A DNA stretch of 64,000 nucleotides from a virus. Taxonomy: Duplodnaviria > Caudoviricetes. The notes beneath the pieces were generated by a model. It was not told the DNA's origin, searched no databases, and saw only the letters and a program-made list of their open reading frames with translations. The position numbers and the translations under genes were made by a program. Positions 43,756 through 64,000 of this stretch are shown piece after piece. Location of the stretch: positions 232 to 64,231 of IMG/VR virus record IMGVR_UViG_3300021400_000239; one strand, 5' to 3'. Within the stretch, counting starts at the first letter, position 1, and each line of letters starts with the position of its first letter.

Positions 43756-43821
43756 GGAGCAAATGCTCCTTTTTCTTTTTTTTAATTTTAGATGTTTTAC
43801 ATCTAAAATAAAAAGGATGGC

Positions 43822-44937: not shown

Positions 44938-45262
44938 CTCCTTTCGTTGATGTGCTTATTATAGCATAAGGGAAAGGAACTGTCAAGAAAATATATTTAG
45001 ATGTTATACATCTAATTATCCGATAAAGGAAAAGCCACCCGTCGATGGCTAAAGGCGCCGAGTGGAACGTTGCGCACCGCCCACTCTACTGGACTTTTCC
45101 TCACTTGTTTATCAGCCAGAAGGGAAAAAGTTTGAAAAGCTGAATCTGTCTGGAAAGGGGCTTTAAGGATAAACCCCTTAGGACCTCTCATGGTTCTTGG
45201 CTATACGGAGCGCTTACGCATCAATTAAGGCGAGTCAGTTTTCGCCACCAAGAAGGGAAGGC

Positions 45263-45589
45263 TTACGCCTTGCGGTAGGTATTCGGCTTGCCCTCAATCT
45301 TGACGATTTCGTCCTGCCAGAGGTGGGTCAGAGCATACTGAACCTTGCCCTTAGTGATGCCCTCAGGAAGGTCATCGGCGATGGCTTCGTAGATTTCGCT
45401 ACAAGTCGCAGGAGAATCGGAGAGGTTGCTGATCAGAAGGTCGTGGAAGGACTCATAAGCTTCAAGGTTTTTCGCCTTGGTATCGGCACCACGGTTGATT
45501 TCTTTGGTCAGTTCATCGAGAACTTCAGTGTTCTCATAACCGATGTTGATAAGAGCAGTACGGATGGTTTCAAGAGTGGACTTCTTCAT
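45263..45589 (-). CDS. Winged-helix protein, paralog of 46037-46360
   Basis: MKKSTL...EL..E..RG...GK..Y.LT..W.DE..KI.GK.NTYR shared between the two. Confidence 0.7.
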   Translation of the reverse strand: MKKSTLETIRTALINIGYENTEVLDELTKEINRGADTKAKNLEAYESFHDLLISNLSDSPATCSEIYEAIADDLPEGITKGKVQYALTHLWQDEIVKIEGKPNTYRKA

Positions 45590-46036
45590 AATTTAATTTC
45601 CTTTCTGGTTTGTTAGGGTTTTCCTTCCCTTGATTTCGTATTCATTATAACATAGGTTTGGAAGTTTGTCAAGAGGTTGCCGAAAATTTTCTCCCTTTTA
45701 TTTTCGGTCATCGGCGAAGAGTCTTGCGTTTCCATGGAGATTTGTTTCCGCTCTCTTGCTCCCTCTGACAGTTATCATTGTACCAGATTTTCGGAAGTTT
45801 GTCAAGCATTTTTTTTAGAGAATTTCTTGAGAGGCTTTCCTCAAGAAATAATAGCGTAGATGGCTAAATCACTATGTACAACTCGTGTATGGTGGGCGCT
45901 CACCACTTAGCCATTTCCTTTCAGGAGGCAACCCTGCCCCTCCTGACAGTTATTATTATACTCAATTCTGAAAAAAAGTCAACAATTTATTTTTAGATGT
46001 ATAACATCTAAAATATTTAATAAGGAAAAAGGGAGA

Positions 46037-46360
46037 TTACTCTCCCTTAATCCGGTAGGTGTTGGTCTTGCCGACAATCTTCTCAACTTCATCTGCCCAG
46101 TAGTTGGTCAGACCGTAGACAATCTTACCACGGGCGAACCCGGTTTCATCTGCGATTTCCTGCGCGGAAACAGGGAGAGAAGCGGACTTCAGAACTTCCA
46201 TGACCGCATCGTGCATCTCTGCGTAAACCTTGCGGTTGGCATCGGCCTTTTCCTTGCCCCGTTCAAGTTCGGCGGTCAGTTCGGAGAGAATGTCCATCAT
46301 GTAATCATCATTCTTTTCGGTGAGGTAGGAGACGAGAGACTGGAGAGTGGACTTCTTCAT
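46037..46360 (-). CDS. Winged-helix protein, paralog of 45263-45589
   Basis: Start MKKSTLQSL at 46360 after the AAACCAGAAAGG leader; 'VSAQEIADETGFARGKI' HTH. Confidence 0.7.
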   Translation of the reverse strand: MKKSTLQSLVSYLTEKNDDYMMDILSELTAELERGKEKADANRKVYAEMHDAVMEVLKSASLPVSAQEIADETGFARGKIVYGLTNYWADEVEKIVGKTNTYRIKGE

Positions 46361-46617
46361 AATAATTACCTTTCTGGTTTGTTGAGGTTTTCCTTCCTCT
46401 GTTGTGAGTTTATTATAGCATAGTTTGTAGTGGCTGTCAAGTACTTTTTTCTGAGGGACGGCGCGCAAGTCGTGGGTGAAGCCGGCACTTGCCACTGTGT
46501 TCCATCGCCTTCCGTCCCTCGGAACAATTGTATTATATGCTAATTTAGGATTTTTGTCAACTACTTATTATTAGATGTATAACATCTAAAAATATTTTAG
46601 AATAAAAAAGTATCTCG

Positions 46618-47604
46618 TCAAGCGAGATACTGAGCAAGTTCGGCGATGGTATTTTCAAGTCGTGTTGTATACTTAGAAGGCTCTTTATTCTGAAGATAGT
46701 TCTGCATTGCGGCAATAACAATTACAATTTCATTCGCATCGGGACGCTTCTTTCTCAGAACGAACTCATCTGTCGTGCCGAGTTCACGGAAGGGGAAGAA
46801 GATAATTCCATTAGAGATTGCCGCCTTTTTAGCAATCTTGCTAAGAATGTATGTTTCAATGATAGCATCATCAAGAGCAGTGTGTGCTTCATCAAAATCA
46901 TACTTGTCGGTCAGATAACGATAAGACGCTTCTGCGCTTGTCTTGAAGAATGTTCCGCTTGCGGTGAGCATATCATTCTGAAGGCACTGCTTCTTGTAGG
47001 TAGCATTGTTCAGAAGATGCTTTGCGGCAAGTCCCCAAAGGTCAAACAGAGGGAAGACTTCACCATGGAAACGGAAGATATCTGCTTCAAAATCTTTATC
47101 GGGGTCTTTCTGATAGCGTTCATTTGCGATTTTAGCACACAGATAACGCTGAGACTGTTCCCATTCAAAATAATCAGGGCTATACAGTTTATTGATATAG
47201 AGGTCAGTGAAGGGAATTGCTTTCTTAAAGTCGAACATACTATTGTATGCTCCGACCGCATCAACCGTGCGGAAATCTTCCATCATAATTTCAACAACTT
47301 CGCGCCAAGGCTTGATAACGGTCTTCTTTTCTTCAAGCATCTTCAAATAGATTGGGCGCTTTTCCGCATAATATGCGGTATTGAATACGGCAGGGACAGA
47401 GAAAGTTTCGGCGATAAGAAACTGTTTCTTATCCAGGAGTTCACCCTTGCGATTTGTGATAGTCCATCCAATATCATAGATGAGCGGACGGGCGATAGCA
47501 ATCTTCTTTTTCTTTTCCGGGTCATGGTTGGCGACTTCATCGGCGAACGGGAGGGTAGCGGACTCACAGTCAAGGGTAGCATAACGATTTTCTCTACGGG
47601 CCAT
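46618..47604 (-). CDS. DEDDh 3'-5' exonuclease-family protein
   Basis: LDCES, YDIGW, AYNSMFD, FDLWG, EAHTALDD motifs. Confidence 0.85.
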   Translation of the reverse strand: MARRENRYATLDCESATLPFADEVANHDPEKKKKIAIARPLIYDIGWTITNRKGELLDKKQFLIAETFSVPAVFNTAYYAEKRPIYLKMLEEKKTVIKPWREVVEIMMEDFRTVDAVGAYNSMFDFKKAIPFTDLYINKLYSPDYFEWEQSQRYLCAKIANERYQKDPDKDFEADIFRFHGEVFPLFDLWGLAAKHLLNNATYKKQCLQNDMLTASGTFFKTSAEASYRYLTDKYDFDEAHTALDDAIIETYILSKIAKKAAISNGIIFFPFRELGTTDEFVLRKKRPDANEIVIVIAAMQNYLQNKEPSKYTTRLENTIAELAQYLA

Positions 47605-48156
47605 ATCTAATCAATTCCTTTCTGGTTTTTAAGTGTTGCCTTCACTTTATGGGTAGATTATACCATCGGTTATGGTTGCTGTCAAGCGGCATTATTAGAT
47701 GTAAAACATCTAAAATAGAAAAATGGGGCAAAGCCCCATTCTTTATTCATCTTCCACTTCGGTAATGCCTTCAACTTCACAATAGCGCGTGAACATATCA
47801 CGGGCGAATTCTTCAATAGCATCAAGGTCAATTTCTTCTCCGAGTTCAACTGCGCTCTGGATTGCGGAAAAAGCAACAATACTCATCATGTGGTCTGCGG
47901 TGTTCATACTAATAGTCATAATAAAGTCCTTTCTGGTTTGAAGTGTTTTCCTTCACTATATCTTAGTCATCAAGCATGTTTTCAACTTTTTGAACAGCGA
48001 GAATTGCTTCATCAATCAAATGCTCACGTTCATCTGTTAATTCGCATTCGTCATCAATGGCTCTGCTAATATGGTTAAGAAAATTATAAACATTTGTAAA
48101 CTGATCAAGTTCATCTTTTGTATAAATCAATATTTTTTTCATATTTATATCCTTTC

Positions 48157-48555
48157 TTACTCCGAGACTTCATTGGGAAGAGGCTGATTCTCTGCCTCTT
48201 CCTTTTCCTTGGCGCGTCTTGCCTTATCCTTGGCAATCTTTTCTGCCTTGGCCTTGGCCTTTTCTGCCTTGGCATCCTGCTTTGCCTGATAGGCATTGAT
48301 TTCACTCTGCATGAGTTCTTCGGCAGTCATGTCCTCACGCTCTTCGGCAACGATAGCCCCAATGCGAACATAACGCTTGTGGCCATTCAAGTCGGTCATA
48401 ATGATACCAAACTGACGGTCATTGACCTTGTCAAAACGAGAAACCTTGTCTGCTGCTGCGTTGGAATCATCAGCATCAAACCAATTGGAGAAAACGAACT
48501 GGAACGCATTCAGACGCAGAGTAGAATCAACAACAGTCTTAGAAATCTGAGCCAT
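48157..48555 (-). CDS. Hypothetical protein with a Lys/Ala-rich tail (resembles the 49897/52832 family)
   Basis: 'DLNGHKRYVRI' vs 'DAEGNERFVVF'; KAEKIAKDKARRAKEKE tail. Confidence 0.6.
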   Translation of the reverse strand: MAQISKTVVDSTLRLNAFQFVFSNWFDADDSNAAADKVSRFDKVNDRQFGIIMTDLNGHKRYVRIGAIVAEEREDMTAEELMQSEINAYQAKQDAKAEKAKAKAEKIAKDKARRAKEKEEAENQPLPNEVSE

Positions 48556-48724
48556 AATTTTTTCCTTTCTGGTTTGGGTTGTTTTCCTTCAACTTTCAAT
48601 GATATTATAATTCATTTTAGGAAAATGTCAAGCATTAACTTTTAGATGTTTAACATCTAAAATATAAGTTGACATTTCTTTTGAAATGGTATATACTATC
48701 GGTGTTGAAAGGAAGGTGCCAATT

Positions 48725-49225
48725 ATGAGAAATAGCTATGAAATCCGTGCTGAAAAGTTCATCCATCAGATTTTTGATTATATTGTGAATTGTATTAATG
48801 AAGAACAGTTTGAGGAAGCTGTTGCTTGGTTTAATTTTACCCATCATCGTAATGTGCGTTTTGCTCATGGTCTTACTCGTGTATGCTTTATCACTTCTGA
48901 CTATGTTGTGAAGTACGATTTTGGAACTTATCGTGATGCCCGTGAGTTTGGCACTTGTAATGATGAAGTCCGTATGTATGCTATTGCCGAAAGGGACGGC
49001 TTCGCGCATCTGCTTGCTAAGCCTACAATGGTTGAGTATATGGGACATTCATTCTGTATTATGCCCCGTATTTATGGGATTGGTAAGTATGATGAAGATG
49101 TGGGTTGGTTTCTTGAAGGCGCAGAATATGATTGGGTTAATGAACATATTTATGATTGCCATAATCAGAATTATGGTTGGAAAAATCATCATCCTGTTAT
49201 CTTTGACTACGCCTGTTGCTCGTAA
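48725..49225 (+). CDS. Inverted unit 3: minimal protein-kinase-like (PKL/APH) fold protein
   Basis: G.TR...DYVVK, E..MY, DCHNQNYG, VIFDY motifs; promoter TTGACA at 48669. Confidence 0.65.
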   Translation: MRNSYEIRAEKFIHQIFDYIVNCINEEQFEEAVAWFNFTHHRNVRFAHGLTRVCFITSDYVVKYDFGTYRDAREFGTCNDEVRMYAIAERDGFAHLLAKPTMVEYMGHSFCIMPRIYGIGKYDEDVGWFLEGAEYDWVNEHIYDCHNQNYGWKNHHPVIFDYACCS

Positions 49226-49288
49226 GAGCAACCTTTTATTATTAGATGTATAACATCTAAAATAGAAAGGTAATGGGAATAAATCCCA

Positions 49289-49785
49289 TTATCTCATATC
49301 AACAACCATGAAGTCATCATTTTCCCAAATCTGACCGTAGTTCTTATCTACAAAATCAAACTTTTCTTCTTTTGCTTCGGTAAGCAAGGCCGCCATGCGG
49401 TTCTGGAGTTCTTCCTTCTTTGCTTTGCGGGCGCAAATAGCGCGAAGTTCGGCGATGATATCACGAAGTTCCTGTGTGGTCATGATGTCGGTATCAATAA
49501 TAACTTTTCCAATTCTCATTTTTATACTTCCTTTCATTAATCAATGGGGCGGTTCAATTCTACTTCTTCAATGTAATAAACGCAAGGTGCTATATAATCA
49601 TTACCTAATGTCTCGTATTCATAGCCATCAAAAGTAAATTCAAACTTTTTCATTTCCTCTTCGGTGTAATCCTCTGCTACACGCTCAAGAATTGCTTTCT
49701 GTGCTTCGGCGAGAGAAGAATAAACTCCGTCGCCCCAATGCTCATAAGGTTCAATAATGAATTCTTTTACTGTAAATACCGTCAT
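49289..49785 (-). CDS. Two unit genes (49289-49519, paralog of 54671-54925; 49537-49785)
   Basis: 'IDTDIMTTQELRDIIAELRAICARK' vs 'FDTDDLSIEELDQIITGLRKIRARK'. Confidence 0.6.
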
Positions 49786-49896
49786 CTCTCACATCTCCTT
49801 TCGACATGATGAATTATAGCATAAGATGAAAAAGAAGTCAAAGCAATTATTTAGATGTTAAACATCTAAATAATATTTCGGGATTAAATCCCGAAA

Positions 49897-50187
49897 TTAT
49901 TTTTCTTTCTTTTTCTTTGCCATCTTTTCTTCAAATTCTTCCTTATACAGTTCTGCGTTGGCATATCCATCATAAGGAATATATCCACCTTCGCCATTAC
50001 GAGTACCGCGAGGAGTAGAAACTTTAATAACGATCCATTTCTCGTTTCCTTCTGCGTCTACGCAAGGAATAGCAAGTTCATTAGCACTTACGGGAAGTAC
50101 ATCAGTGTCATACTGCTTGGACAGAAGTTCCTGAATAGAATTGAGATATTCAGAGCGCAGAAGAGCTTCAAGCTGAGTTTTATTCAT
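49897..50187 (-). CDS. Hypothetical protein, paralog of 52832-53197
   Basis: Shared 'NELA.PCVDAEGNE....KVS.PRGTRNG.G..PYD.YA.AE.Y'. Confidence 0.75.
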   Translation of the reverse strand: MNKTQLEALLRSEYLNSIQELLSKQYDTDVLPVSANELAIPCVDAEGNEKWIVIKVSTPRGTRNGEGGYIPYDGYANAELYKEEFEEKMAKKKKEK

Positions 50188-50480
50188 TTACTTTCATCCT
50201 TTCATTAATCGTTAAGGAACATGTAAGAAAATATAAGAAGCATAAAGCCAACTATCACAAGGAGAAGAAACGCAGGAATAAATACTCCCCAGATAAGTCC
50301 CCAAAGCATCAGAATTCCGGCAAGGGCATCTGCTATGTTCATACCGCCATCTCCTTCCTTTTGACAAATATATTATAACATAATTTTGAAAAAAGTCAAT
50401 TATTAAATTAGATGTTTAACATCTAAAAATTCTATTGCTTTTTTCTTGGAAAGTGATATAATACGCATGAGGTGATAAAT

Positions 50481-50954
50481 ATGAAGCGGTTGACAGTGAT
50501 TAGGCGGTTCGTTTCAGAAGTGGCATGTGAGAAAGTCGGATTGACAGATGATGTTGAATACTGTGCTATGGCGACATTTTCGGGAAGAAAGCACTATAAA
50601 AAGCCGACTATCGGAGTGCCAAAAGATAATTTGATTTGTGAATTACAAGATGAAACCACTAAGATTTTTCGTAGAAATTTTACAAGTAGATATTCTGGCG
50701 CAAAAGGCTTTGCCAATATCACTTTGGTGCTATTACATGAAGTTGGGCATTTGAAAACAAGCGAAGAGTTCTGGGGAAATGAAGAAGCAGAAATGCTTGA
50801 CATGATGATGCGAAGCGCAGTAGAGACACAAGAAGAGTATATGAAAATTCCGTCTGAATATGGCGCAACCGAGTGGGCTATTGGGTGGCTACAAGATGCG
50901 AACAATCGTTCACTCGCAAAACAGTTTGAACGGCAGTTCTTCAATGCGGAGTAA
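50481..50954 (+). CDS. Inverted unit 4: HEXXH zinc-metallopeptidase-like protein
   Basis: LLHEVGH...SEYGATEWA; promoter, GAGGTG RBS, hairpin AATGCGGA/TCCGCATT. Confidence 0.65.
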   Translation: MKRLTVIRRFVSEVACEKVGLTDDVEYCAMATFSGRKHYKKPTIGVPKDNLICELQDETTKIFRRNFTSRYSGAKGFANITLVLLHEVGHLKTSEEFWGNEEAEMLDMMMRSAVETQEEYMKIPSEYGATEWAIGWLQDANNRSLAKQFERQFFNAE

Positions 50955-51027
50955 ATCCGCATTCTTTTACTTTTAGATGTTTTACATCTAAAATTAAATA
51001 AAAGAAAAAAAGGGGATATATCCCCTT

Positions 51028-51792
51028 TTATTCTTCTTCAACTCCAGTGAAGTTGATAACATCTTTGCGAGTAATCTTTTTCAGATACGTGCCCTTAAAC
51101 ACAACTTCTTTATCAAACTTAATCGTGAAGGGCTTGGGCGCGACCCGTTCCAAAATGCGCTTTACTTCATAATCAGTATTCCACTTTGCGCCGAGAGTAT
51201 CAATACAATAAATCAGAATAGCGGTTTCAATGTCTACATCATACAGACCCATATGCGCTTCTTCAAAAGTATCATCTTCGGCAATATACCTATAAACAAC
51301 TTCTGCGCTTCCTTTGTAGTTGCCTGTATCAGTAAAGTAATTATTAATCTCGCAATAGTGCTGATATTGTGGAGTATTTGTAATGTATTGCGAAGCATAG
51401 CCCCAAATATCATGGATAGCGATAGTATCAAAAGGATTAATACACTTGAACCAGTCGCAATTAAAGGAGATAACTTTGTCATCAAAATTGGAGTTGTAGG
51501 CATACGCATCAGTGATACCATACTTCTGAATATCACGGTGAATCTCACGCATTACATAGCCCCACTTGTCCATCGTGGCCTTGTGCTGGCGCATAAGCTG
51601 AACATACTGAGGACGCTTCTGGGCATAGTATGCTGATTCAAACAGCGGAAGGTTGTGCCAAATCTGCTCAATGACAAAGTGCTTGCGCTCAACCGTCATG
51701 TGCTGACAGGTGTCATACACGCAGTATCCGATATCATAGCAAAAGGGCTTGTCCAGACCAGTAGTTTCCGTGTCCATAATCATTACATTCAT
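51028..51792 (-). CDS. DEDDh 3'-5' exonuclease-family protein, paralog of 46618-47604
   Basis: MDTETTG, YDIGY, AYNSNFD, HDIWG, EAHMGLYD. Confidence 0.85.
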   Translation of the reverse strand: MNVMIMDTETTGLDKPFCYDIGYCVYDTCQHMTVERKHFVIEQIWHNLPLFESAYYAQKRPQYVQLMRQHKATMDKWGYVMREIHRDIQKYGITDAYAYNSNFDDKVISFNCDWFKCINPFDTIAIHDIWGYASQYITNTPQYQHYCEINNYFTDTGNYKGSAEVVYRYIAEDDTFEEAHMGLYDVDIETAILIYCIDTLGAKWNTDYEVKRILERVAPKPFTIKFDKEVVFKGTYLKKITRKDVINFTGVEEE

Positions 51793-51928
51793 ATAAGTAC
51801 CTTTCTGGTTTGATTTGTGGTATCCTTCCACTTCATTGTGTTCCGAGGAACAAGTGTATTATAGCATGTTCTGGGAAAAATACAAGAAGAATATTTAGAT
51901 GTTATACATCTAAGAAATAAAAATGGAA

Positions 51929-52378
51929 TTACTCCGCATGGAGTAATTCCGCCAGAACTGACAGAATGTCAGAAGGTTCATATGCTTCGCCAGTCCAGTC
52001 GTTTCTGATTTCTTCATTATCATCAAACAGAATGTCATTTTCTGTTTTCAGGAAACTTTGCTTTGGCGTGCCATAGTCTACAATTTCCATGATATCAAAT
52101 GAAACTGAAGCCAGATGCTGATGAAGCCAGTCCATTTTTGCGCTTGCTACTGCTTCATTGTATTCAGCGTTTCCATCCTTAGAAGTCCAGCTGATGATAC
52201 CGATGCCGTAGCCATGACTTTGGAGCTTATTCAGATACCGAGCAAGCAGACTCATGTTCAGCATAACGGCCGCTTCTTCGTAGGGCGTGGGGTCAAAAGC
52301 ACGCAGACGGGGAAGCCAATTCTCTACCGAATACAGGTCGGCGATTGTTCCATCCATATCAAACCAAATCATTCTCAT
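51929..52378 (-). CDS. HAD-family phosphatase (5'(3')-deoxyribonucleotidase-like)
   Basis: FDMDGT motif I, IIS, K, LFDD motif IV. Confidence 0.8.
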   Translation of the reverse strand: MRMIWFDMDGTIADLYSVENWLPRLRAFDPTPYEEAAVMLNMSLLARYLNKLQSHGYGIGIISWTSKDGNAEYNEAVASAKMDWLHQHLASVSFDIMEIVDYGTPKQSFLKTENDILFDDNEEIRNDWTGEAYEPSDILSVLAELLHAE

Positions 52379-52506
52379 TTTCTTTCTCTCTCTTTCTGTT
52401 CCCTTGGAACGAGTATATAATAGCATAATTTTGGGAAAAGGTCAAGTAATAAAATTTAGATGTTTAACATCTAAAAATCATAATCAAATGCGGCAAGGCC
52501 GCATCT

Positions 52507-52701
52507 TTACCTATCTACAAGAATCTTGATAATTGCCACAATAAGAGCAATCAGCAGAACAACGCTCCATGTAATCCACAACGGCGCGAGAACCCAAATC
52601 CAACTCCAATTGATAACGCCGCAAAGTTTAAGCACGATGAAAGCAATAGTGAGCAGTCCGAAGAAACCAATTCCATTGTTCTTAATTGTCGTGTTTTCCA
52701 T
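52507..52701 (-). CDS. Small two-TM membrane protein
   Basis: GIGFFGLLTIAFIVLKLCGVINWSWIWVLAPLW. Confidence 0.7.
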   Translation of the reverse strand: MENTTIKNNGIGFFGLLTIAFIVLKLCGVINWSWIWVLAPLWITWSVVLLIALIVAIIKILVDR

Positions 52702-52831
52702 TTTAATTCCTTTCTGGTTTTATGGAGTATCCTTCTCCTTTCAACACCGATATCATATCATAGTTTTAGGAATTGTGCAAGTATATATTTTAGATGTTAT
52801 ACATCTAAGAATTAAGAAGAAATGAAACCGC

Positions 52832-53197
52832 TTACGCGGTTTCCTTTTCCTTTTCCTTTTCCTTTTCGGCGCGCTTCTGCTTATCGCGCTCAATCTTCTC
52901 CTGCTTCTTCTTTTCGGCGGCGGCCTTCTTTTCCTTCTTCTCCTCTACTTCCAGTGCGTATGCTTCAGCTGCGGCATACGCATCATACGGGTCATAGCCG
53001 TTGCCGTTGCGAGTGCCACGAGGGATAGAAACCTTAAAGACCACAAAGCGCTCATTGCCCTCAGCGTCCACGCAGGGAACGGCCAGCTCGTTGGAGCTTA
53101 CAGCGAGAGCATCAGCATCGCAAGCATTGGACAGGGCATTAGACAGGATAGTAAGATACTGTTCACGCAGAGCATTCTCAAGTTCGGTTTTAGTCAT
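52832..53197 (-). CDS. Hypothetical protein, paralog of 49897-50187
   Basis: Same shared motif as 49897-50187; Lys/Glu tail. Confidence 0.75.
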   Translation of the reverse strand: MTKTELENALREQYLTILSNALSNACDADALAVSSNELAVPCVDAEGNERFVVFKVSIPRGTRNGNGYDPYDAYAAAEAYALEVEEKKEKKAAAEKKKQEKIERDKQKRAEKEKEKEKETA

Positions 53198-53336
53198 AAT
53201 TTTACCTTTCTGGTTTGTGAGGTGTCCTTCCTCTTTACAGTTAGTATTATACTCTGATTCGGGATAAAGTCAAGTATTAGTTTTTAGATGTTTTACATCT
53301 AAAAATTAAAATAAAATAAGTCGGATGCTATCCGAC

Positions 53337-56300
53337 TTATCGTTCCAAAATATCATAAATCTTCAAAATCTGCTCAACAGTAGGAATATCCTTGTCTCTA
53401 CAAGTAATAGTGAAACGGATGGTATCAGAAGAGATACTAGGCTTGAAATCTTCAACGCTACATCCAACGCGATCGACAACGGTATTCATAATATACCGTC
53501 CAATCTGGTTGCGAGGAACATAATAGCTACGAGTAATCATCTTTCAATCCTCCAATTCAAATTTTGATAATTCGTTGGCAATAATTTGATTTGCCCAAAT
53601 TAGTCTTTTATAAAAACTAAAATCATCGGGAGCATCGGCGAGTAATTCTATTAAAGCTTTGTGGAGTTCTGCTTTTTCTTTACGCTGTTCTTGCGTCATT
53701 ATTCCCAATCCTTTCCCTTATACTTCGGTTTCTTAAAACGCTTGTCTGGAATAACTTTAGTCGCGGGATTTACATTGCCCCAAGTTTTACGCTCGCTCTG
53801 GAATACTTCCACCCAAGTTTTGGTTTTCTTGGTCTTTTTCATTTTCAACCGCTCCTTCTTATCAATCAAGTGGCGCTTCAATCCAACTGTATTCGCCCCA
53901 TTCGCCATAGTCAAGAATCCATTCAATGTAATCTTCCCATGCCTGTTCCCGTTCATCTTCCGCATATTCGCGGTCTTCTGTCCAGTAGAGAAAGTCTCGT
54001 TCTTCAGAATAATAATGGTCGTTCATATACTTATGGCACTGCTGACGAATGGGTTCAATAGAGGTATAAACATGGTAGGGTTCACCCTGATAGGACAGAA
54101 CATATACAACTTTACTCATACTCAATTGCTCCTTTCCTTATTGACAAGATAATTATAACATAATTTAAGTAAAAGTCAAATATTTATTTAGATGTATAAC
54201 ATCTAAAAAAATATAAAGTTGGCGCATATGCCAACTTTAACAGTCATCAGTATAGCAGCCTGCATACGGGTCAAATCCCATTTCAATATCGTATTCCGGT
54301 TCTTCATATCCAAAGTGTCCCTTAGCCCATTCAATTTCTTCTTCTGAGAAATCTTCTTTCTCATCACTGGGCGCATCAGCTTGTTCCCATTCTTCCCAGC
54401 TTGTCCATACACTAAGCCAGTCCTCACAGTCCTCGCAAGGGTCATCAACATGGCATACGCAATTCTTGTCGCAGTAGGGGCAATCCCAACCGTTCACGGG
54501 GCAATAGGTGAGTTCACCGTTATAAGTTCCGGCCTTACTATCTCTCATTTTAGTCCCTCCTCTGTTCCTCTTGGAACTGTGATAATGATATCATACTTTG
54601 ATAGAAAAAGCAAGAGAGTATTTTAGATGTACTACATCTAAAATGGAAGAAGCTGGGAAACCCAGCTTGCTTACTGAACCATGATTTCCATCAGCGTACC
54701 GTCGTAGTTTTCCAGCCCATAAACGCCCAGATGCAGCTCGCGTGCTTCCGCCAGCAGCTCGTTGAACTGGTTATTCAGCTCCTGCGCACGATGCTTGCGC
54801 GCACGAATCTTACGCAGACCAGTAATAATCTGGTCAAGCTCTTCAATGGAGAGGTCGTCGGTATCAAAAGACACAACAGCGGACACGGGGTTAACGATTT
54901 CACTCAGTTTCTTTTCGGGTTTCATAATCTTACTTCCTTTCGTGAGGTGATGGTTATATTATACTCAGATTTTAATTTTTGTCAAACATTTATTTTAGAT
55001 GTAATACATCTAAAAATTATACACGGGATATTATCCCGTGGAGTTTTACTTCCAAATTGTTTTTCCGTTCTCAGTAAACAATGACTGATTGCGGTCAACG
55101 CGCTTGCGCAGATAGGGCGGAATTTTCTTTGTTCCATTGTATACAGCTACCAGCTCACGGAAGGTAGTTACATACATTGTAATAACTTTCAGCTTGTCCT
55201 CTGTTTTTACCAGCGTAATACCAGTGTCGGTGATACACAGATACACGCCGTTCTGATACTTTTCGCGCACAACCTGCCCCAAGCCAATATCATTGATGAT
55301 ATGCTGTACTCGGTTCGCTCTCTGTACTTCACAGTGATAAGTCATTGTTGTCATGGTTCATACCTCCTTTTGATGTTGTAAGTATATCATAAAATGGGAA
55401 AATTGTAAAGAGTAATTTTTAGATGTTTTACATCTAAAAACTATAATGAAATAAGCGCCAAGGCGCTTATTTTACATGATTTCATCAAAAGCTGCTTCAA
55501 GCCAATCATCATTTACCATGCTTGCAAAATCGGATACCAGCTTGCGCAGAATAGTTCCAGCCTGCTCTTCATCCATCTTGGTCAAATCCAACCCAGTATG
55601 CTTTTTCAGCTGTCGCATCAGGAGCTTAAGCATATCGCAGTAAGTGTATTCCTTCTCGTCCTCGTCAAAGTAAACAGTCGCATTGAGTTCCATATTTTAG
55701 TCCTTTCTGGTTTGGGAGGTTGTCCGTCCTCTTTACAATTAGTATTATATTCATTTTAGGAAAAAAGTCAAGTAATATTTTTTAGATGTATAACATCTAA
55801 AATTATAATGAAATAAAGGGATTTCTCCCTTTATTTATTAATCCAAATATCCATGGAGTTCTACATATGAAATTCTATTATTAATAGGATTAATAGTGCG
55901 CTGTGCTTTCCGCCCCAGCCTTTCTTCCAGCTTGGCGAGTTCTTCTTCAGCTTCCTTTACGGACACAGTGTTAGCAAGTTCCAGCTTGCAGTCCTCTACG
56001 CATACGTAGATAGTAGCGCAAGAGATAGAAGGCTTGTCTTCGAAATAGGTAATCATTACACTCATATAAGTATTATACTTCATTGCCGTTTCTCCTTTCG
56101 TGTCCCTCTTAGGAACAACTATATTATACTCCAATTTGAAAAAAAGTCAAATGTTATTTTTAGATGTATTACATCTAAAAAATATAAAAGGGGAAAATTC
56201 CCCTTTTATCATTCAATTTCACCAGTATAAATATTATACTTGACATTATCATTATAAATCTTTTTTGCCAACTGGTAAGTCATGCCGCGCTCGCGCATGA

Positions 56301-58794
56301 ACCAACCGATGTGTTTGATGGTTGTCATGCTGTACAGTCCATTGACGATCATCCAGCCTTCCGGGTCAATCTCAATAACGGTAGTGGTGTAGCTTACCAG
56401 TTGAACAGTACCGTCCTCAAATGTCCGAACGTAGGTGCTTGCATACTTGTGACCATTGTTAAGCGATACAGTGTAATTCATGTTTCAATCCTTCTTTCTT
56501 TTATTTCGTTCCCTTTGGAACATCTATAGTATACTGCCATTCGGGAAAAATGTCAACAGTAGTTTTTAGATGTATTACATCTAAAATTAAAACGAAATAA
56601 TAGGTCCCGTTTCGGGACCTATGGAATTATTCATAATACTCAACGATGTCCCAACCGCCGGACCAAATTCCGCCAAAGTGTGCGTTGTCCTCTACCCATG
56701 CCGCCGCGGCACTGATGGTTTTGAACCCATCTTCAATAATGATGTTCCATTCGATGCTTACAATACGATAGCGCTTCTTCATTGTTTTTTACTTCCTTTC
56801 TTTTTGTGTTCCCTTGGAACAACTATATAATACACCATTTTGGGATTTGTGTCAACTTTTATTTTTAGATGTAATACATCTAAAATTAAAATGAAATACA
56901 ACGGGTTATGTGCCCGTTGTTTTTGGTTGTGGGAAAAGCCGCTGACGCAAATTGATTGTATCTTTAAGTTCGTTTAATTTTGAAATTGCGGTTTTATGCG
57001 AAGAATAATCGATATCAATGCGATTATGGATATAGGTTCCTGGAACTAAATAAATTACTAAAGTAGAATTATAATATTCCTTTTTTGAATTGAAATTATC
57101 AACCACTTTGGCGAAAGTTATACTATTTTCGCTAAACATCATTTCTTCAAAGATAATCATAATATATCCCCTTTCGGGACGGCGGATTATTCCGCCGTCA
57201 AATTCGTCTTAGTGTAATAGAGATTGAAATTGCCGTATTCTACGGAACAAGGGTCAGTGATATCATCATAACCATTTTCTTCGGCATCGGTATAGAGTTC
57301 GGTTTCGAGAATGATGTATCCGTTTTCTTTGTGCATCCAGTAATAGTTTTTCATTTTGTAATTCCTTCCTTTCTTGTCCCTTCGGACAAGTGTATTATAC
57401 TACTTTTAGGGAAAAATGCAAGTTTCATTTTTAGATGTTTTACATCTAAAAATGAAAATGAAATTGAAATAAAAATATAAAGGTTGAAATTGTCAACCTT
57501 TATATATTAATATTTAATGTTGATTATCATATCGCATCAGAATTACATTAGAATAATGTGTTAAATATGTTATACCTTCAATGGTAACCTGCACGACATC
57601 TGATTCATCAAAGTCGCGCCAATTGTCAATTTTACCTTCAATCATTTCACCGTTATGCAAGATAATGATTGCTTCGTCAAAGCTTTGCTTAAAGTCAAGA
57701 CCAATTTGACGATTCCCAAGAGAGCAACCTGTCATCATTAGAACAGTGATTAGCAGTAGAGCAATAAGAATAACTTTTTTCATAATGATTACTTCCTTTC
57801 TGTCCTTTGGACAAATATATTATAACATTTTTTAAAAATATTACAATGCCTCTTTTTAGATGTTTTACATCTAAAACTATAAGAAGGGAAACCGGTGTAT
57901 TGCTTAGCAATACACCAATTCCATCGTAGACCATTTGAGAATACTAATCTGTTTATATTCGCGCCCAATACGAAGCGCTTCTTTCTTTGTGCTAACACGG
58001 AAACTATGGTCAATATAATAAATACCTTCACTATACCAGATGCCGCAGCTTCCCTCGTACAGCTTTACAGCTTGCATAGCAGCTTCCGGTGTAGCAGCTT
58101 CCATGCCATAGTCGGCTACCTGGTAGCCGCTCTTATATGACACAATACGTCCGTTCTTCAGTGTAAGCCCATCGTTGTTGCCCAGTTTCCGCATAGTCCG
58201 AATGTTAATCATGGTTTGAACCTCCGTTCCTTTGATGTGTATAGTATACTACACTATGGCAGAAAAAGCAAGAGAGAAAATTAGATGTATTACATCTAAA
58301 AAAAGAGAAGGGGAATTTTCCCCGTCTATCATGCAAGCCAATAACTAATATGTGTATGTCGCGGCAGCAGCTTGCCTTCATAAGTAAGGCGCGTAAGGCG
58401 TTTAGCAGCTCGCCTACGGCTAAAGCCAGCTCGCAGCAGCTTGACGCTAAAAGCATCCTCAAGGCATACACCAGTCCAGACTTCTTCGCCGCGGAGCAGC
58501 GCAGAGACAGCAGCAGAACGTGATACTTTTGTCATTATTATAACCTTCTTTCGTTTTCTTGTTCCTTGGAACATAGATATAATAGCATACTTAAAGCGAA
58601 AAGTCAATATAGATTATTAGATGTCTTACATCTAAAAAATTATACTGCCATTTAGATATGGCAGTATAATTATTATTATACAATTTCAAGTGTATTTATA
58701 TACACTTCTCCCGCTTCCTGCATATTCCATACTGCGATCATCTTATTGACAATAATATAAATATTCTTCTTTACCATTGCATACAATTTCATCA
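53337..58794 (-). CDS. Series of small unit genes (53337-53540, 53862-54125, 54237-54548, 54671-54925, 55046-55354, 55472-55693, 55838-56083, 56209-56481, ~56627-56782, 56906-57160, 57514-57783 lipoprotein-like, 57904-58212, 58329-58535, ~58670-58794)
   Basis: Mostly one gene per palindrome-bounded unit, with sigmaA-type promoter, RBS and hairpin; 57514 has an MMTGC lipobox-like signal. Confidence 0.65.
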
Positions 58795-58992
58795 TTATTA
58801 TTTCCTTCTTTCTGTTAGTTGTGTTCAACAAGAACACCTATATTATACGCTTTTTCTTTAGTATGTCAAGGCAAATTATTAGATGTAGCACATCTAATAT
58901 TTACAGTATATATATTTTTATAATTATTATAATAAATAAAATACTTTATTATGTTTATAAAAATATATGTATATAATTATAACATATATAAA

Positions 58993-59505
58993 AGAAGGGC
59001 TTGCGCCCTTCTCTTATTTTGTCGGATAGCGGAGCTGTCCCGCTCCATACTTTTCATACAGTGTACAGGCTCGTTCAGCTCGCGCCTGTGTCTCTGTAAT
59101 CAATACCGCGCTTGCTTTCAGCCCGTCATGCTTCCATACGACGAACTTTTTCATGGTCATTTCATAAGTGTATTCAAACATTTGCTTTAGCTCCTTTCTT
59201 TATCATAGGGAAGGGCTTGCGCCCTTCCCATTACATCCATGTTGTGTATTCTGTCCAGTCGAAACCATTGGTTCCAAAGCTTACAGCTTTTTCTCTGACC
59301 ATGATACAGAACAGCTTTCCGTTGGGGCTTTCCGCATCATAGTCCCGTCCGCACTGATTCACGAACCAAGCAGGGCTTTCAATAATGCGCTTTACAAGTT
59401 CCGCGCTAACTTCCATCGTGTGTGTGTTCTCGCAATTGTGAATATAATACTTCATTGTTCTTTTCCCCTTTCCTTTTCGTTGGGAAGGGGCTTGCGCCCC
59501 TTCCC
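58993..59505 (-). terminator. Three related GCAA-loop hairpins GAAGGGC-GCAA-GCCCTTC after short genes
   Basis: Copies at about 58994, 59209 and 59482; a similar one at about 40853. Confidence 0.65.
59231..59455 (-). CDS. Hypothetical protein
   Basis: 74-aa ORF with RBS between two GCAA hairpins. Confidence 0.6.
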   Translation of the reverse strand: MKYYIHNCENTHTMEVSAELVKRIIESPAWFVNQCGRDYDAESPNGKLFCIMVREKAVSFGTNGFDWTEYTTWM

Positions 59506-59513
59506 GGTTTGTC

Positions 59514-60062
59514 TTACTTCTGGAAGTATTCTTCCAGTGTCGGCATGTTTTCCAGCACTTCCCACAACCTGTCTTCCATCCTAGGCGTGATGGTCTGGAT
59601 GTTCAGCTGAGCGCCGCCCTTGCTGACTTTCAAGGAACTTTTCAGCCCCTTCTTTCCAATGACTTCCAGCGTTTCAATGAACTGTTCACGAGTGAACACC
59701 CACATCATTGACTGGAAATTGTCCTTGCTCAAGAACTTAGAGAACGGCGCCCAACACACAAGCGCTACACCGGGCAAGACATTTTCAGCTGTACAATCGT
59801 CAGCTGTAAAGCCTTCACCATAGGCAACCGCGCCCGAACCTGTCTTAATCTCGATTGCGCCAATTCCCTTCCGGCTTACATCATTGCTACCGAGCTTGCG
59901 ACAACGGACATCATTCGCCCGAGTGATGCCGCGAACAAGGATATAGTCACGGACGATTACATCCATCAGCTTTCCCGTGCTTCCTGTGCTGTGCTTGCTA
60001 TCCTGCCGGGCAAGCTCTTTTTCATAGTTGGCGAGTTTTTCAAGATACTCAGAACGCTTCAT
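59514..60062 (-). CDS. PD-(D/E)XK nuclease-like protein
   Basis: 'NDVSRKGIGAIEIKTG' D...EIK motif; promoter TTGACA..TATAAT at about 60153-60180. Confidence 0.5.
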   Translation of the reverse strand: MKRSEYLEKLANYEKELARQDSKHSTGSTGKLMDVIVRDYILVRGITRANDVRCRKLGSNDVSRKGIGAIEIKTGSGAVAYGEGFTADDCTAENVLPGVALVCWAPFSKFLSKDNFQSMMWVFTREQFIETLEVIGKKGLKSSLKVSKGGAQLNIQTITPRMEDRLWEVLENMPTLEEYFQK

Positions 60063-60408
60063 GATTGTGTCCCCCTTATAATAGTTATAGTCTTATCTTC
60101 ACCGCATCGGCCTGCTCATATCATCGCCGGCTGCCCGTCTCGGTATGTCTACATTATACTCTTTCTGTTTTAGATGTCAAGCACTTTTTTGATTTTTTTT
60201 GAAGAAAATTTTTATGCGTTTTTTCCTATATCAGACAAATAATAACAATGATACAAATATAACCATTTAAGACGCTGCCTTTTAACACTTCACCGCGCTA
60301 AAGTGCGGATAATTTTATCACTTTTTATTGATAAATATATAACCATTATCCCGGCATAAAATTGTGTTAGTTATCACTAACTCGGGCGGTTAGTTAGTCA
60401 TAACTAAC

Positions 60409-60566
60409 TGTGAATAAAGTTGTGGATAAAGTTATCCACAAGCCTGTGGATAATTCTGTGGAAAAACCTGTGGATAACTTTATCCACAGCCCTGTGGATA
60501 ACCCTGTGGATAACTTTATCCACAACCCGGGGGATATTTTCAGGCTGTGGATAAACCTGTGGATAA
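60409..60566. promoter_or_regulatory. Cluster of 12 DnaA boxes
   Basis: TTATCCACA or its complement at 60421, 60432, 60445, 60469, 60480, 60493, 60505, 60516, 60546, 60558; consensus variants at 60409 and 60457. Confidence 0.92.
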
Positions 60567-60692
60567 CTCGGGGCATGCCCTCCCCAAATTCCACCAACTT
60601 TTTTAAAAATAAACCCATTTTATTAAACTCAAATACTTGACAACCCATTACCCGATATGATACAATTAAAATAAAGGAGGTGTTGCAATCAA

Positions 60693-62000
60693 ATGAAAAA
60701 AGCATATTCATTAGATTATAACATAGAAAGAGACACCGACCGTTTGGAATTGGTAAAAGGTATTCTAGATACCCTACCCAACGACCCTTCGCCGCAAGAT
60801 TTAGAACAAATGGCCACCTACATATTATACGGCAAGGACGAAAACGGACTGTCCTCTTTAAAGCGCGGAGAAGTATATAATAACTCCAAGCGCTACAACA
60901 CATTTAAAACCTCCGACGATTATGTTCTTTCGCTAGATGAAATACTTGAAAACCCCGCTACCGACGAACAAGAATTCCGTAGTGCCTACAAGCGCGACAT
61001 TTACAAGAAATCCGTTCCTACCATATAGCGCCCCAAGTACGATAAAAAAACTGGCGAACTAATTGATATCGGAGACGCCGACATCCCCGGTATGGTAGAA
61101 CTTTGGGAGCGCCTAGACCATCTAGACAAGTGGGTTCAGATGTTATCAGGCAAGTTGCCGCCAGAGGAAGGCTTTCTTATGTTTGAGGATGACTATCGCC
61201 TCTACCGCCTCAAACATAATTTGGTAGATATGAAGAGGACGCAATACTACTTAAAGGATGTATATAAGCCACAATTGCGCTTTTAGGCGCTAGACCACCC
61301 CAAGCCTCAATTCTATGAGTGGGACGGAGAATCCGCCTACTGGATACCCTATGAGGAATGGGAATATCGCGTTACCCACTCCTACACCCATACAATTTCA
61401 ACGCGCCTTGAGGACTATGAAACACGCGGCGAACCCCCGCATCTAGAAGTGCGCTGGATTGTATGCCGCCATAATTTTGACTGGGAAAACTACAAACATA
61501 TTTACGCCCTTATGAATAATTATTTGCCGCTGCGCGAATAGCTTAAGGACAAATTAAATACATATGGGCGCACCCTTATTTGGGACCTTGAGCGCTATGT
61601 GGAAATGACCCCATTGTCCCCAATTCGCCGCGCCATTGTTTATAAAGTAATGGACCAAATGCCGCGCGAACAAATATGCCAAGAGCTATAGGAAGAATTT
61701 GGCTTTACCTACAACGCCTACTATCTTAGCACCCTTATCGCCAACGATATCCCAAAAGAAATTGCGCGAACCGCCGCAAAACATCGTGTCCTATGTGAGA
61801 CTCCGAAATCCGAACTAAAAATATGTAAGGGTTGCGGCCAAGCCTTACCGCGCCATGCCCTATTCTATACAAAAAACGCCGGCCGCAAGGATGGTTTTTA
61901 GTCCTATTGCCGAGATTGCGAGCGCAAGCGCCGCATAAAGAGGGGGGAATAGAATGAGTATGACGGAAGAAAAAAAGACCAAGCGATGCTATAGGTGTAA
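60693..62000 (+). CDS. Phage protein with C-terminal zinc finger, TAG=Gln
   Basis: ORFs 60693-61028 and 61092-61286 join; read through manually to TAA 62000; CKGC...CRDC; promoter TTGACA..TACAAT at about 60637-60666. Confidence 0.75.
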
Positions 62001-62907
62001 GGTAGATAAGCCGCTAGAAGCCTACCAATACACACCATCGCGCTTCTTTCCCGGCCACCGCTCCTACATCTGTACTTCATGCCTTGAGGCAACTACCCCG
62101 CAAGATAATCTTGGCGAAGTTGACCGCGTAATGCGCTGGTTAGACTTGCCGCTGGACCTTAACAAATGGACGCAACTTTACGCACAATACAAAGACCATA
62201 CCTTTACCGCGTACTTCAATCTCCTGTATGATGACCACTATGCGGCATTGACTTGGCAAGAAGAAAACGCGCGATGGGAATTGGCGCGAAAAGAAGGCAC
62301 CATTGATGATGAGATTAAGGCGATTTCAGAAGCGAAAATGAAGCACCTGAAGAAGGTATGGGGCCCAACCTATAAAGCCGATGAACTTCTTTGGCTTGAG
62401 GACTTTTACAATAAAATTGTAGCAACGCAAAATGTTTCCACTCCAATTCTTTAGGAAAAGGCGCGCGACTTTTGTGAGCTTTAGTGGCATATTAAGTAGG
62501 GTCTGCGCGAAGGCATTGATGTTTCTAAGATGATGAAGCAAGCTGACGACATTGTTAAAACCTACCACTTTGAGGCATCCAATGCGAAGTCCGCGGCAGA
62601 CTTTGAATCTGTTGGGGAACTTATGGTTTATTTTGGCAAGAAAGGATGGCATCCAAATTGGCATACTGAGCCGCAAGATTCCATTGACTTTATGATGGAA
62701 AATATTCAAAATTATTTGTAGCGGCTGGTCCGCAATGAAGGCAACTTCGCAGAACAAGTTGAAGATAAGCGCGCGAAGTATAATATGACTGAACGCCTTG
62801 AAGAAATTGAAAATGAAAAGGTTGAGTTTGACGAAACCGCCGACATTGAATATGAAGGCGAGGACAGTCTAGAGAAAGAATTGAATTACAATGGAGATGA
62901 TGATTAA
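61954..62907 (+). CDS. Zn-finger protein upstream of the terminase (small-subunit candidate), TAG=Gln
   Basis: CYRC...CTSC; 61954-62454 and 62530-62721 are in one frame; TAA 62907. Confidence 0.7.
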
Positions 62908-62908
62908 A

Positions 62909-63802
62909 ATGTATTAGACAACTTTAGAGCATTTTGAAAAAAAACTACAATCACAATTTCCAGAAGATAATTTAACAGTAATAGAATTTTCTAAAGCTAA
63001 TTCTCCAGTGGTAATTCGCTGTAATAAATGCGGGCATACCTATTCATATAAACGAGGTACTACGCTTTATGGGTCAAAAAGAAAATATTTTTGTAAGCTA
63101 TGTAATACAGAAAGTGTTAAATGTATGTAGCAAGCCTGCCAAGACCATAATCTTACTATTATAGCGTATGGTGATAAAGTAACAGATTTTTTTACTCTTC
63201 AATGTAATACCTGTGGTTTAATTTTTAAAAGAACTCCGGCAACTTGGCTCAAATGTGATTGTCCTAATTGCGGCATCAATAAAAAAATTATAGACAAACA
63301 AATTTACCAAGACTAGTTAGATAAATAGTTTGGAAAAAATGAAATGGTTATTTTAGATGCTATCCCTAAATCTCACTTGATGACTGTTTAGCATAAATGC
63401 GGATTTATTCGTACTTCCAGTTTTAAGGCAATAATTTAGAGTAAAGCTTGCCCTCTCTGCGATAAAACAGCGAGTCTAGGAGAAAGAAAAATTCTATTAT
63501 TTTTAGAAAAAAATAAAATAGACTATAGTTATTAGAAAGCTATTCCAAATACACGATTACATTTTGACTTCTATTTAGAATAGTATAATATAGCCATAGA
63601 ATTTAATGGCATATAGCATTATTAGCCAATTGACTTTTTTGGCGGTGAAAAACGATTTTAGCAACAACAAAAATATGACCAAGCTAAAATAAAATATTGT
63701 CAAGATAATAATATTAAATTATTAACTATTCATTATAGTGATATTAACAATATTGAGCAAATTCTTGCCGCCGAGCTATAGGGAGGGGAGTAGGATGAGT
63801 GA
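62909..63802 (+). CDS. Zinc-ribbon repeat plus Vsr/DUF559-like PD-(D/E)XK endonuclease (homing-type), very TAG-rich
   Basis: Repeated CxxC; 'SLGERKI', 'FDFYLE*YNIAIEFNGI*HY', 'YDQAKIKYC'; absent from the ORF track. Confidence 0.8.
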
Positions 63803-64000
63803 ATTTCAATAGGAGACCCTAATGCGCGACGGCATCCCAATTGAAAAAGGCGTCATCCTCACTAAAGATTTTTTAGATAGTAATCAAGAATTATTTACTA
63901 AGTATCTTAATTTATGGATACTATATCCTGACCTTTGGCTAGACATGATATAGGACAGAACAGACGCTTAGCACTTTCACTTAATGCCCTTTCAGCGCAT
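63795..64000 (+). CDS. Probable terminase large subunit, N-terminus (partial)
   Basis: 'W.LYPDLWLD......HFHLMPFQR' resembles large-terminase N-termini; ATPase motifs would lie outside the window. Confidence 0.5.

Follow-up and report, generated by a model that had tools for sequence, protein, structure and literature searches.

Introduction

In T5-like phages, eight DnaA boxes (binding sites for the bacterial initiator protein DnaA) are arranged in pairs 3 bp apart in an untranslated region next to the pre-early genes, as reported for 25 phages (Davison 2020, bioRxiv 10.1101/866236). For the injection-stop region of T5, a stop caused by membrane-bound DnaA was proposed without a test, and DnaA-site clusters of T5 are cited as having been in print since the 1980s without a tested function (bioRxiv 10.1101/866236). 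In the present study, an array of 12 DnaA boxes was analyzed at positions 60409-60566 of the window, that is, of the whole 64,000-nucleotide stretch (positions 232 to 64,231) of the IMG/VR virus record IMGVR_UViG_3300021400_000239. With a probability of about 0.45, the array would serve host DnaA as a dock or sink, and not as an origin, at the hub between the early and the late genes of the phage.

The locus resembles the iss/first-step-transfer region of T5 in that a virulent phage carries a repeat-rich untranslated stretch beside small, first-expressed genes. In both, the boxes are paired 2-4 bp apart within inverted repeats, and neither is thought to be an origin. The two differ in layout and distribution: all 25 T5-like phages have four separate pairs, eight boxes in total, of which about half deviate from the consensus, whereas here 12 contiguous boxes, 10 of them perfect, were found in only one sub-lineage. 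The host also differs, being enterobacterial for T5 and apparently a Firmicute here.

Clustered high-affinity boxes in mixed orientation and away from the origin are known from datA of Escherichia coli and from six DnaA-box clusters (DBCs) of Bacillus subtilis (Okumura 2012, PMC3245932). Such clusters hold DnaA, lowering its availability or regulating neighboring promoters (PMC3245932). These are chromosomal, mostly origin-proximal and serve the cell cycle; the present array, unlike them, is borne by a phage contig with tail, holin and portal genes, has its boxes more tightly packed (12-bp pitch), and would increase in dose as the phage replicates. The datA locus acts through IHF-dependent ATP hydrolysis.

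For oriC, Richardson is said to have described in 2016 a basal unwinding system consisting of DnaA boxes, DnaA-trios and an AT-rich tract. In common with such a system, the array has consensus boxes, a G+C-rich element that follows the last of them and AT-rich DNA in the vicinity; it differs in having no run of trios, no dnaA or dnaN, boxes of mixed orientation and an AT-rich tract that is short and conserved independently of the boxes. As in iteron-plasmid origins such as P1 oriR, RK2 oriV and pSC101, boxes lie beside repeated sites for an element-encoded protein and AT-rich DNA. Unlike those plasmids, the element is a large virulent-type phage, its neighboring repeats are palindromes that occur across the early regions of the family, and no Rep gene was found. 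Finally, the core of E. coli DARS1 and DARS2 also combines two co-oriented boxes with one opposed (Sugiyama 2019, PMC6868365). Opposed boxes of DARS are separated by 5 bp, with one core to each locus (PMC6868365), whereas those of the array are separated by 2 bp and belong to a run of units; the spacing speaks against a DARS.

Array of DnaA boxes

The boxes were located as follows.

60409-60566, 9 boxes on the minus and 3 on the plus strand: array of 12 DnaA boxes, 10 perfect TTATCCACA and 2 consensus variants
60304-60312, minus strand: outlying one-mismatch box TTATCCGCA, within a small hairpin (60293-60308)

The two variants are TTATTCACA at 60409 and TTTTCCACA at 60457. Boxes start at 60409 (-), 60421 (-), 60432 (+), 60445 (-), 60457 (-), 60469 (-), 60480 (+), 60493 (-), 60505 (-), 60516 (+), 60546 (-) and 60558 (-), so that the order of orientations is mixed (- - + - - - + - - + - -) and the start-to-start spacings are 12, 11, 13, 12, 12, 11, 13, 12, 11, 30 and 12 bp, the pitch being mostly 11-13 bp. 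The spacers between boxes are 2-4 bp long except for a single 21-bp gap (60525-60545), which contains a degenerate GGGGGATAT. Each plus-strand box forms with the box preceding it a palindrome, TGTGGATAA-NN-TTATCCACA, giving three head-on pairs.

All 10 perfect copies of TTATCCACA in the window lie within the array; 0.77 per window and 0.0019 per 158 bp are expected from base composition, and the Poisson P for at least 10 perfect boxes within 158 bp is about 2e-34. When up to one mismatch was allowed, 28 sites were found in the window, 12 of them inside 60409-60566. The published consensus TTWTNCACA gave 12 matches in the window, which are the 12 boxes of the array; shuffled sequences gave a mean of 7.95 (standard deviation 2.88), spread across the 64 kb. 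By the motif search, the consensus scan and the Poisson P, the 10 perfect boxes and two consensus variants in 158 bp, in mixed orientation, that a sequence-only reading of the window had reported were borne out.

Outside the array (1-60408 and 60567-64000), TTWTNCACA did not occur, against about eight boxes predicted by the shuffles. Counts of outside-array boxes against a reversed-pattern control were 0 vs 4 in record G000, 2 vs 2 in G001, 6 vs 8 in G002, 11 vs 14 in G022 and 18 vs 12 in G004. A family-wide depletion of stray DnaA boxes was considered and dropped, since the counts in related records are near those of the control and the zero of the window may be due to chance.

The inverted arms 60419-60466 and 60479-60526 are 77% complementary. 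The array folded as single-stranded DNA with -36.1 kcal/mol (z -5.75), and a long hairpin or cruciform can be extruded. An Rfam search of 59900-60800 gave no family at the gathering score; the sole hits were hairpin-like microRNA matches, caused by the inverted boxes.

The contig is not a chimera at this point. The related loci L001 and L002 align unbroken to 59204-62861 of the window with identical 12 boxes, the separate assembly L185 has the 12-box layout too, and a DNA contig (record 6) of run X3, from another study, covers 59204-60615. The left junction and the array recur in four other assemblies and one run contig, and L001, L002 and L185 also continue into the rightward gene. A chimera at this point, which the sequence-only reading had left open, is refuted by the left junction and array common to L001, L002, L185 and run X3, and an assembly artefact is contradicted in the same way. 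It is also very improbable that the repeats are read by a phage protein such as a small terminase or a repressor, with a coincidental match to DnaA boxes. In favor of such a protein, the gap around the array contains operators of the phage family and borders the packaging operon; against it, the universal DnaA consensus is matched in 9 of 9 positions ten times over, and the same consensus is arrayed in unrelated phages.

Distribution among related phages

The locus was compared with 58 relatives in IMG/VR that share the gene to the right of the array.

60693-62000, plus strand: first gene of the rightward operon, 435 aa, with 7 TAG and a Cys-rich (zinc-ribbon-like) C-terminal tail

The contigs of these relatives are up to 188 kb long, and five of them were rated 98-100% complete at 167-188 kb. 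Whole records of 55 of the 58 were searched for perfect boxes only, and the relaxed-consensus scan for clusters covered only the fetched loci of the 58; in the latter scan, 0 of 290 shuffled loci gave a cluster.

Clusters were found in 4 of the 58 relatives, namely L001 and L002 (12 boxes each), L029 (8 boxes) and the contig of L004 (4 boxes). Within 700 bp upstream of the 435-aa gene, perfect boxes were present in L001 and L002 only; the 56 other loci had none, including L003 (98% identity) and L004 (89%). Among the 55 whole records, the array with 10 perfect boxes was likewise confined to L001 and L002, and the remainder had 0-4 scattered perfect boxes, similar to the reversed-pattern control. 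The complete relatives G004, G005, G028 and G036 (98-100%) had 1-3 scattered perfect boxes and no paired boxes, even with a relaxed pattern.

Homology of the window to L003 begins at 60593 and to L004 at 60577, just right of the array. Both relatives have the rightward promoter and the AT-rich element before it in common with the window, and all DNA further left is unrelated. The array is therefore part of a swappable early-side module, whose right edge is a mosaic boundary; judged from the sequences compared, it is optional and modular in the family.

The four boxes on the contig of L004 are perfect, direct and at 12-bp pitch. They start 5 bp upstream of the -35 element of the first leftward early promoter and abut a dense run of AGTTAG-N8-CTAACT palindromes (about 20-bp pitch; L180, 2900-3270). 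Genes to the left of them are homologous to window genes at 46-52 kb (tblastx, 45-64%). The genes adjacent to the arrays of the window and of the L004 contig are not homologous to each other (BLASTP, E 0.54), so no partner protein is shared. In L029 (50% identity), eight boxes under the relaxed consensus, oriented - - - - - + + +, lie 1.26-1.37 kb upstream of the same operon. At least three lineages of the family carry DnaA-box clusters. These stand without exception at the head of the early region, and both their layouts and their numbers of boxes (4, 8 or 12) differ.

On the side of its packaging operon, L004 carries about 14 spaced copies (counted by eye) of a 22-bp palindrome upstream of that operon, at 4900-5590. 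Seven of the 58 family contigs (L012, L017, L018, L022, L033, L034 and L055) end 10-117 bp upstream of the 435-aa gene. Contigs of run X3 break at 60593-60615, matching the start of homology to the array-less relatives. The breakpoint near 60577-60615 would be either a hotspot of recombination between early and late regions (strain mosaicism) or a physical genome end.

Putative ligand and role of the array

The DnaA DNA-binding domain PF08299 was found in none of five records searched (that of the window and those of four relatives, two of them 100% complete); in the control, 10 of 14 named genomes gave a match. This agrees with the sequence-only reading, which had seen no dnaA nearby. Because the boxes match the universal bacterial consensus and no PF08299 domain of phage origin was found, host DnaA would be by far the likeliest ligand. 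Clusters also recur in three further lineages of the family and in unrelated phages, and binding of host DnaA is thereby supported to the extent that sequence can support it.

As a dock or sink, the array would work as follows. Its 10 top-affinity and two good boxes, about one helical turn apart, would be filled by about 12 DnaA molecules once the genome enters the cell, and, to judge from established DnaA biochemistry, this should occur regardless of whether DnaA is in the ATP- or the ADP-bound form. The bound DnaA would form a protein-coated block of 160 bp between two divergent host-type promoters. As genome copies of the phage multiply, each with 12 sites, the number of sites may come near or exceed the DnaA pool of the cell; free DnaA would drop, new initiation on the host chromosome would halt, and the host DnaA regulon would presumably shift. 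More speculatively, the block may also restrain the late promoter close by, or insulate it, as long as there is a surplus of DnaA. A stronger form of this idea, in which the array is a protein-free takeover device and timer, is quite unlikely: the DnaA-coated hub would repress the packaging promoter, and the draining of DnaA would both stop host initiation and free the late promoter. If so, late gene expression would be coupled to the copy number of the phage genome.

The dock or sink is favored because the number of boxes varies (4, 8, 12) and nearly all of them are perfect, features that point to a function dependent on the amount of DnaA bound. The lack of DnaA-trios, the mixed orientation, the lack of a neighboring initiator or loader family, the optional occurrence and the recurrence at the head of the early region would also support it. 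So would the concentration of all consensus-class boxes of the window in 158 bp, the lack of a phage PF08299 domain, the dense arrays in other phages and, weakly, the low depth of RNA contigs over the gap.

Several points weigh against it. A multicopy plasmid with a DnaA-box cluster bound DnaA in B. subtilis and left initiation and over-initiation unchanged (PMC3245932); by analogy with this result, simple titration may be weak in Firmicutes. A single genome copy early in infection cannot titrate DnaA, and a virulent phage gains little from a late block of host initiation. By the scans made, in which the search outside the fetched loci was for perfect boxes only, most relatives (54 of 58) are without any array. 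AT-rich DNA flanks the array of the window on both sides, and about 140 bp of very AT-rich DNA follows the boxes of L029, both of which are origin-like. Finally, the host is hinted to be of the Clostridia type only weakly, so its DnaA-box preference is assumed.

In the literature on phage DnaA-box clusters, titration and terminal-repeat boxes, no published test of a phage-borne DnaA sink was found, and apart from the T5 preprint this literature gave only routine Ori-Finder predictions.

Gap around the array and its bearing on an origin

The array is situated in a gene-free divergent gap of 630 bp (60063-60692), between a minus-strand gene (59514-60062) and the plus-strand 435-aa gene. Features of this region are listed below.

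59514-60062, minus strand: first leftward early gene, 182 aa, no TAG; no Pfam or PHROG family
60153-60180, minus strand: leftward promoter of the first early gene, TTGACA, 16 nt, TATAAT; 12/12 consensus
60366-60408, no strand assigned: two GTTAG...CTAAC palindromes adjoining the array; family-wide operator-like motif
60567-60586, no strand assigned: G+C-rich element, a 12-bp palindrome GGGGCATGCCCC followed by TCCCC; homology of the array-less relatives starts just after it
60587-60636, no strand assigned: AT-rich element directly 5' of the -35, conserved in relatives (1 copy here, 2-3 direct copies in L003, L004 and L185)
60637-60666, plus strand: rightward sigma-A-type promoter of the packaging operon, TTGACA, 18 nt, TG-n-TACAAT; 11/12 consensus with TG; conserved in L001-L004

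The end of the array is 71 bp from the -35 of the rightward promoter and its start is 229 bp from that of the leftward promoter; a strong ribosome-binding site precedes the ATG at 60693. AT-rich DNA was present on both sides, at 60168-60260 (73-87% A+T, ending about 150 bp left of the array) and at 60588-60632 (73-83% A+T, beginning 22 bp past the last box), the latter tract being conserved also in relatives without boxes. The sequence-only reading had placed the array in a divergent gap between a unit array and packaging genes, next to AT-rich DNA. The two AT-rich tracts confirm the last point, and the position follows from the gene strands, from the 30 palindromic units to the left, and from a portal match in the collinear locus L002.

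The motif GTTAG-N5-11-CTAAC precedes the 435-aa gene in 40 of 46 family loci and follows it in 0 of 46, and the palindromes therefore look like operators of the family. In one sample, contigs from RNA libraries start at 60684 (X7) and 60682 (X8), 16-18 nt past the -10, and the summed depth of RNA contigs over 60346-60679 was 0 and 1.68, vs 13.9 and 10.3 in the following bin. These values give a weak hint that the array is untranscribed and that the predicted rightward promoter is in use.

The sequence-only reading had offered two roles, a host-DnaA-dependent origin of phage or plasmid-like type and a DnaA sponge. On the sequences compared, the sponge appears to fit better. In an origin, host DnaA on the array would open the adjoining AT-rich DNA and recruit the host helicase-loading chain, transcription from the strong flanking promoters would help the opening, and the early module would have brought its own origin. 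Such a role is doubtful, although the DnaA boxes of mobile DNA classically belong to origins, as in P1 oriR, RK2 oriV, F and pSC101. The succession of binding sites, G+C-rich element, conserved AT-rich direct repeats and strong promoter is in its favor, as are the eight boxes of L029 with the AT-rich DNA that follows them and the long hairpin or cruciform open to the array. It is weakened by the absence of DnaA-trios from the gap, since 60063-60692 contains no run of three or more TA[AG] or [CT]TA trinucleotides and no relaxed run of five or more; by the mixed orientation with head-on pairs, nearly all boxes being of top affinity; and by the lack of the array in the 98%-identical L003 and in four relatives that are 98-100% complete. 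The four-box version on the L004 contig abuts a promoter and a palindrome array and has no AT-rich tract. PHROG and Pfam scans gave no initiator or loader gene family beside the array, and large virulent phages usually supply their own initiation system. The plasmid-like variant found no support, as no Rep, Par or integrase family is encoded next to the array; an origin of the iteron type was rejected because the neighboring repeats are palindromes, not direct iterons, and no Rep family is present among the flanking genes.

DnaA-box clusters in other phages

IMG/VR was scanned for pairs of direct boxes separated by 2-4 bp, and at least 121 stretches were obtained. Among the matches listed, the maximum number of perfect boxes per 200 bp was 2 in 62 stretches, 3 in 34, 4 in 14, 5 in 2, 6 in 4, 7 in 4 and 8 in 1; that is, 11 of the 121 listed hold 5-8 and none holds 10, and the array of the window is the densest perfect array among the matches listed. 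Where flanks were available, the neighboring genes encode a terminase large subunit (L094 and L089), portal, minor capsid and scaffold proteins (L109) or an M15 peptidase (L083), and endolysin genes also occur next to dense arrays. A C-rich flank resembling that of the window lies beside the arrays in L083, L175, L173, L159, L089, L156 and L183. In L083, L173, L175, L159, L094, L089, L156 and L183, direct and head-on pairs were observed, often with TTATGCACA variants and with a C-rich or G-rich flank such as CCCCTCCCC. Of 80 listed hits with known position, 28 lie within 1 kb of a contig end, vs 11.9 expected, an excess to which repeat-broken assemblies may contribute.

By blastn against 50,697 cultured-phage records, the array matched 30 records, and the four loci inspected hold only 2-4 boxes. 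In Lactococcus phage WRP3 the boxes are in a 1.5-kb gene-free gap, in Arthrobacter phage Tiff81 (L183) in the last 100 bp of the genome, and in Microbacterium phage SallyK at a distance of about 340-700 bp from the left end; the fourth locus is that of Streptomyces phage Faust.

These positions bear on a reading that was overlooked by the sequence-only reading and whose published analogue is the set of DnaA-box pairs at the T5 injection stop. The array would then be near a physical end of the genome or a terminal-repeat boundary, where DnaA, largely membrane-associated, would anchor or pause the entering DNA so that the early module is exposed first. The anatomy is similar, with small genes under host-type promoters, a repeat-rich gene-free gap with paired boxes, and then the rest of the genome, much as the box pairs of 25 T5-like phages lie beside pre-early genes (bioRxiv 10.1101/866236). 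Next to the array are the packaging operon and the mosaic boundary at 60577-60593; seven of the 58 family contigs stop just upstream of the 435-aa gene, as listed above; arrays stand upstream of terminase genes in L094 and L089; and end-proximal boxes occur both among the IMG/VR hits and in Tiff81 and SallyK, cultured phages with defined ends. Even so, this reading is unlikely. The enrichment at ends is accounted for equally well by contigs that break at repeats or where strain mosaics meet, the array is not conserved in the family as it is in T5-like phages, and the membrane-DnaA stop of T5 is itself only a hypothesis (bioRxiv 10.1101/866236).

In the unrelated viral contig L105, pairs of DnaA boxes and the motif CGAAC-N4-GTTCG follow each other in alternation three times (2425-2520). 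This motif is presumably the Firmicute LexA (Cheo) box, and the arrangement suggests a phage control region wired to two host sensors, of replication and of damage. Such sensing of the host state would suit DnaA as a purely local transcription factor, through which one or both flanking promoters respond to the replication status of the host with no stoichiometric role for the boxes. The four boxes of the L004 contig, so close to the -35 of the first early promoter, and the regulation of B. subtilis promoters by DnaA through box clusters (PMC3245932) also speak for this role. For the array of the window it is nevertheless improbable, as 12 boxes over 158 bp far exceed the needs of known DnaA-regulated promoters and the -35 elements are 71 and 229 bp away.

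Phage fragment and neighboring genes

The record is a single contig of 64,231 bp without terminal repeats, with a CheckV completeness of 36%. When TAG was read as a sense codon (with Q as placeholder), many short frames merged into long genes, such as a 3196-aa frame at 19237-28827 with 36 TAG and a 793-aa frame with 19. The three genes to the right of the array carry 7, 4 and 13 in-frame TAG, and of the 23 frames selected on the minus strand from 42.7 to 60.1 kb, 18 carry none. Genes with sense TAG are structural, lysis-side and packaging genes (1-33600 on the minus strand and 60693-64000 on the plus strand), in contrast to the region 42000-60100. The TAG count of the 435-aa gene ranges among relatives from 0 (L025) to 11 (L029). 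PHROGs matches in the record include tail, tail-fiber, holin, homing-endonuclease and nucleotide-metabolism families, to which Pfam adds a SpoIID domain. From the recoded long frames, the phage families and the large contigs of relatives, the element is therefore taken as a fragment of a large amber-recoded phage of the ruminant gut, of roughly 170-190 kb. ARAGORN found no tRNA gene in the window; the amber suppressor must therefore be on the missing part of the genome.

Public runs that contain the phage are animal gut metagenomes of sheep, cattle and goat. The six contigs of metagenome-assembled genomes (MAGs) that carry the gene of the family belong to two Acutalibacteraceae MAGs (four contigs), a Nanosyncoccus MAG (one) and an Eggerthellaceae MAG (one), which weakly hints at a host of the Clostridia type. 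A megablast search of 59000-64000 against cultured phages gave no match.

For the 182-aa protein of the first early gene, an Atlas search gave only a PD-(D/E)XK nuclease lead (score 0.92). Residues 262-412 of the 435-aa protein match phrog_5767, labelled 'sigma factor' (1.1e-15); for this protein, Pfam gave no family, the PDB no match by sequence (lowest E 0.29) and Foldseek nothing at E<=0.001 (lowest 0.12; AlphaFold model with a mean pLDDT of 69.4). In the collinear L002, the rightward operon encodes the 435-aa protein, proteins of 317 and 630 aa, a portal protein (phrog_2739, 2e-67) and a protein of 419 aa; with this portal match, the packaging genes that the sequence-only reading had placed to the right of the gap proved correct.

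In the early region to the left, the palindrome TAGATGT-NNN-ACATCTA occurs 30 times between 42053 and 58896, about once per 560 bp (0.01 expected). Each copy closely precedes the -35 of a leftward consensus promoter, so that the unit array described earlier is real, and many units close with a terminator-like hairpin. Such a cassette-like early module resembles the host-takeover regions of phages.

Further genes were noted in the window. An HNH/DUF723 endonuclease gene (62891-63802, 13 TAG) corresponds to an insertion (62862-63763) that is absent from all relatives compared; runs X5, X7 and X8 contain the joined form 62861>63764, as would suit a mobile homing endonuclease inserted directly ahead of the presumed terminase gene. 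A Thg1-like tRNA-His guanylyltransferase (31838-32464; PHROG match, 6e-58), a LAGLIDADG homing endonuclease with helix-turn-helix domains (32622-33599, 8 TAG) and a SpoIID-domain protein (29485-30102) are also encoded.

Significance

Arrays of this kind are already documented in T5-like phages, so that the kind is known and its function unsolved. Clusters of host-initiator sites recur in many unrelated phages in the IMG/VR scan, and the present locus is an unusually clean case among them: apart from the array with its 10 perfect sites, the 64-kb window is free of consensus-class boxes. L003, a natural relative that is nearly identical, has no array, yet it also lacks the whole left flank, and two other lineages have four and eight boxes at the hub. 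A fragment of 250 bp may bear on whether a phage can capture a host master regulator with bare DNA, on whether such arrays are origins and on whether they mark genome entry. As the array is at the switch point between early genes in the standard code and late recoded genes, it may also bear on the timing of late genes in amber-recoded phages.

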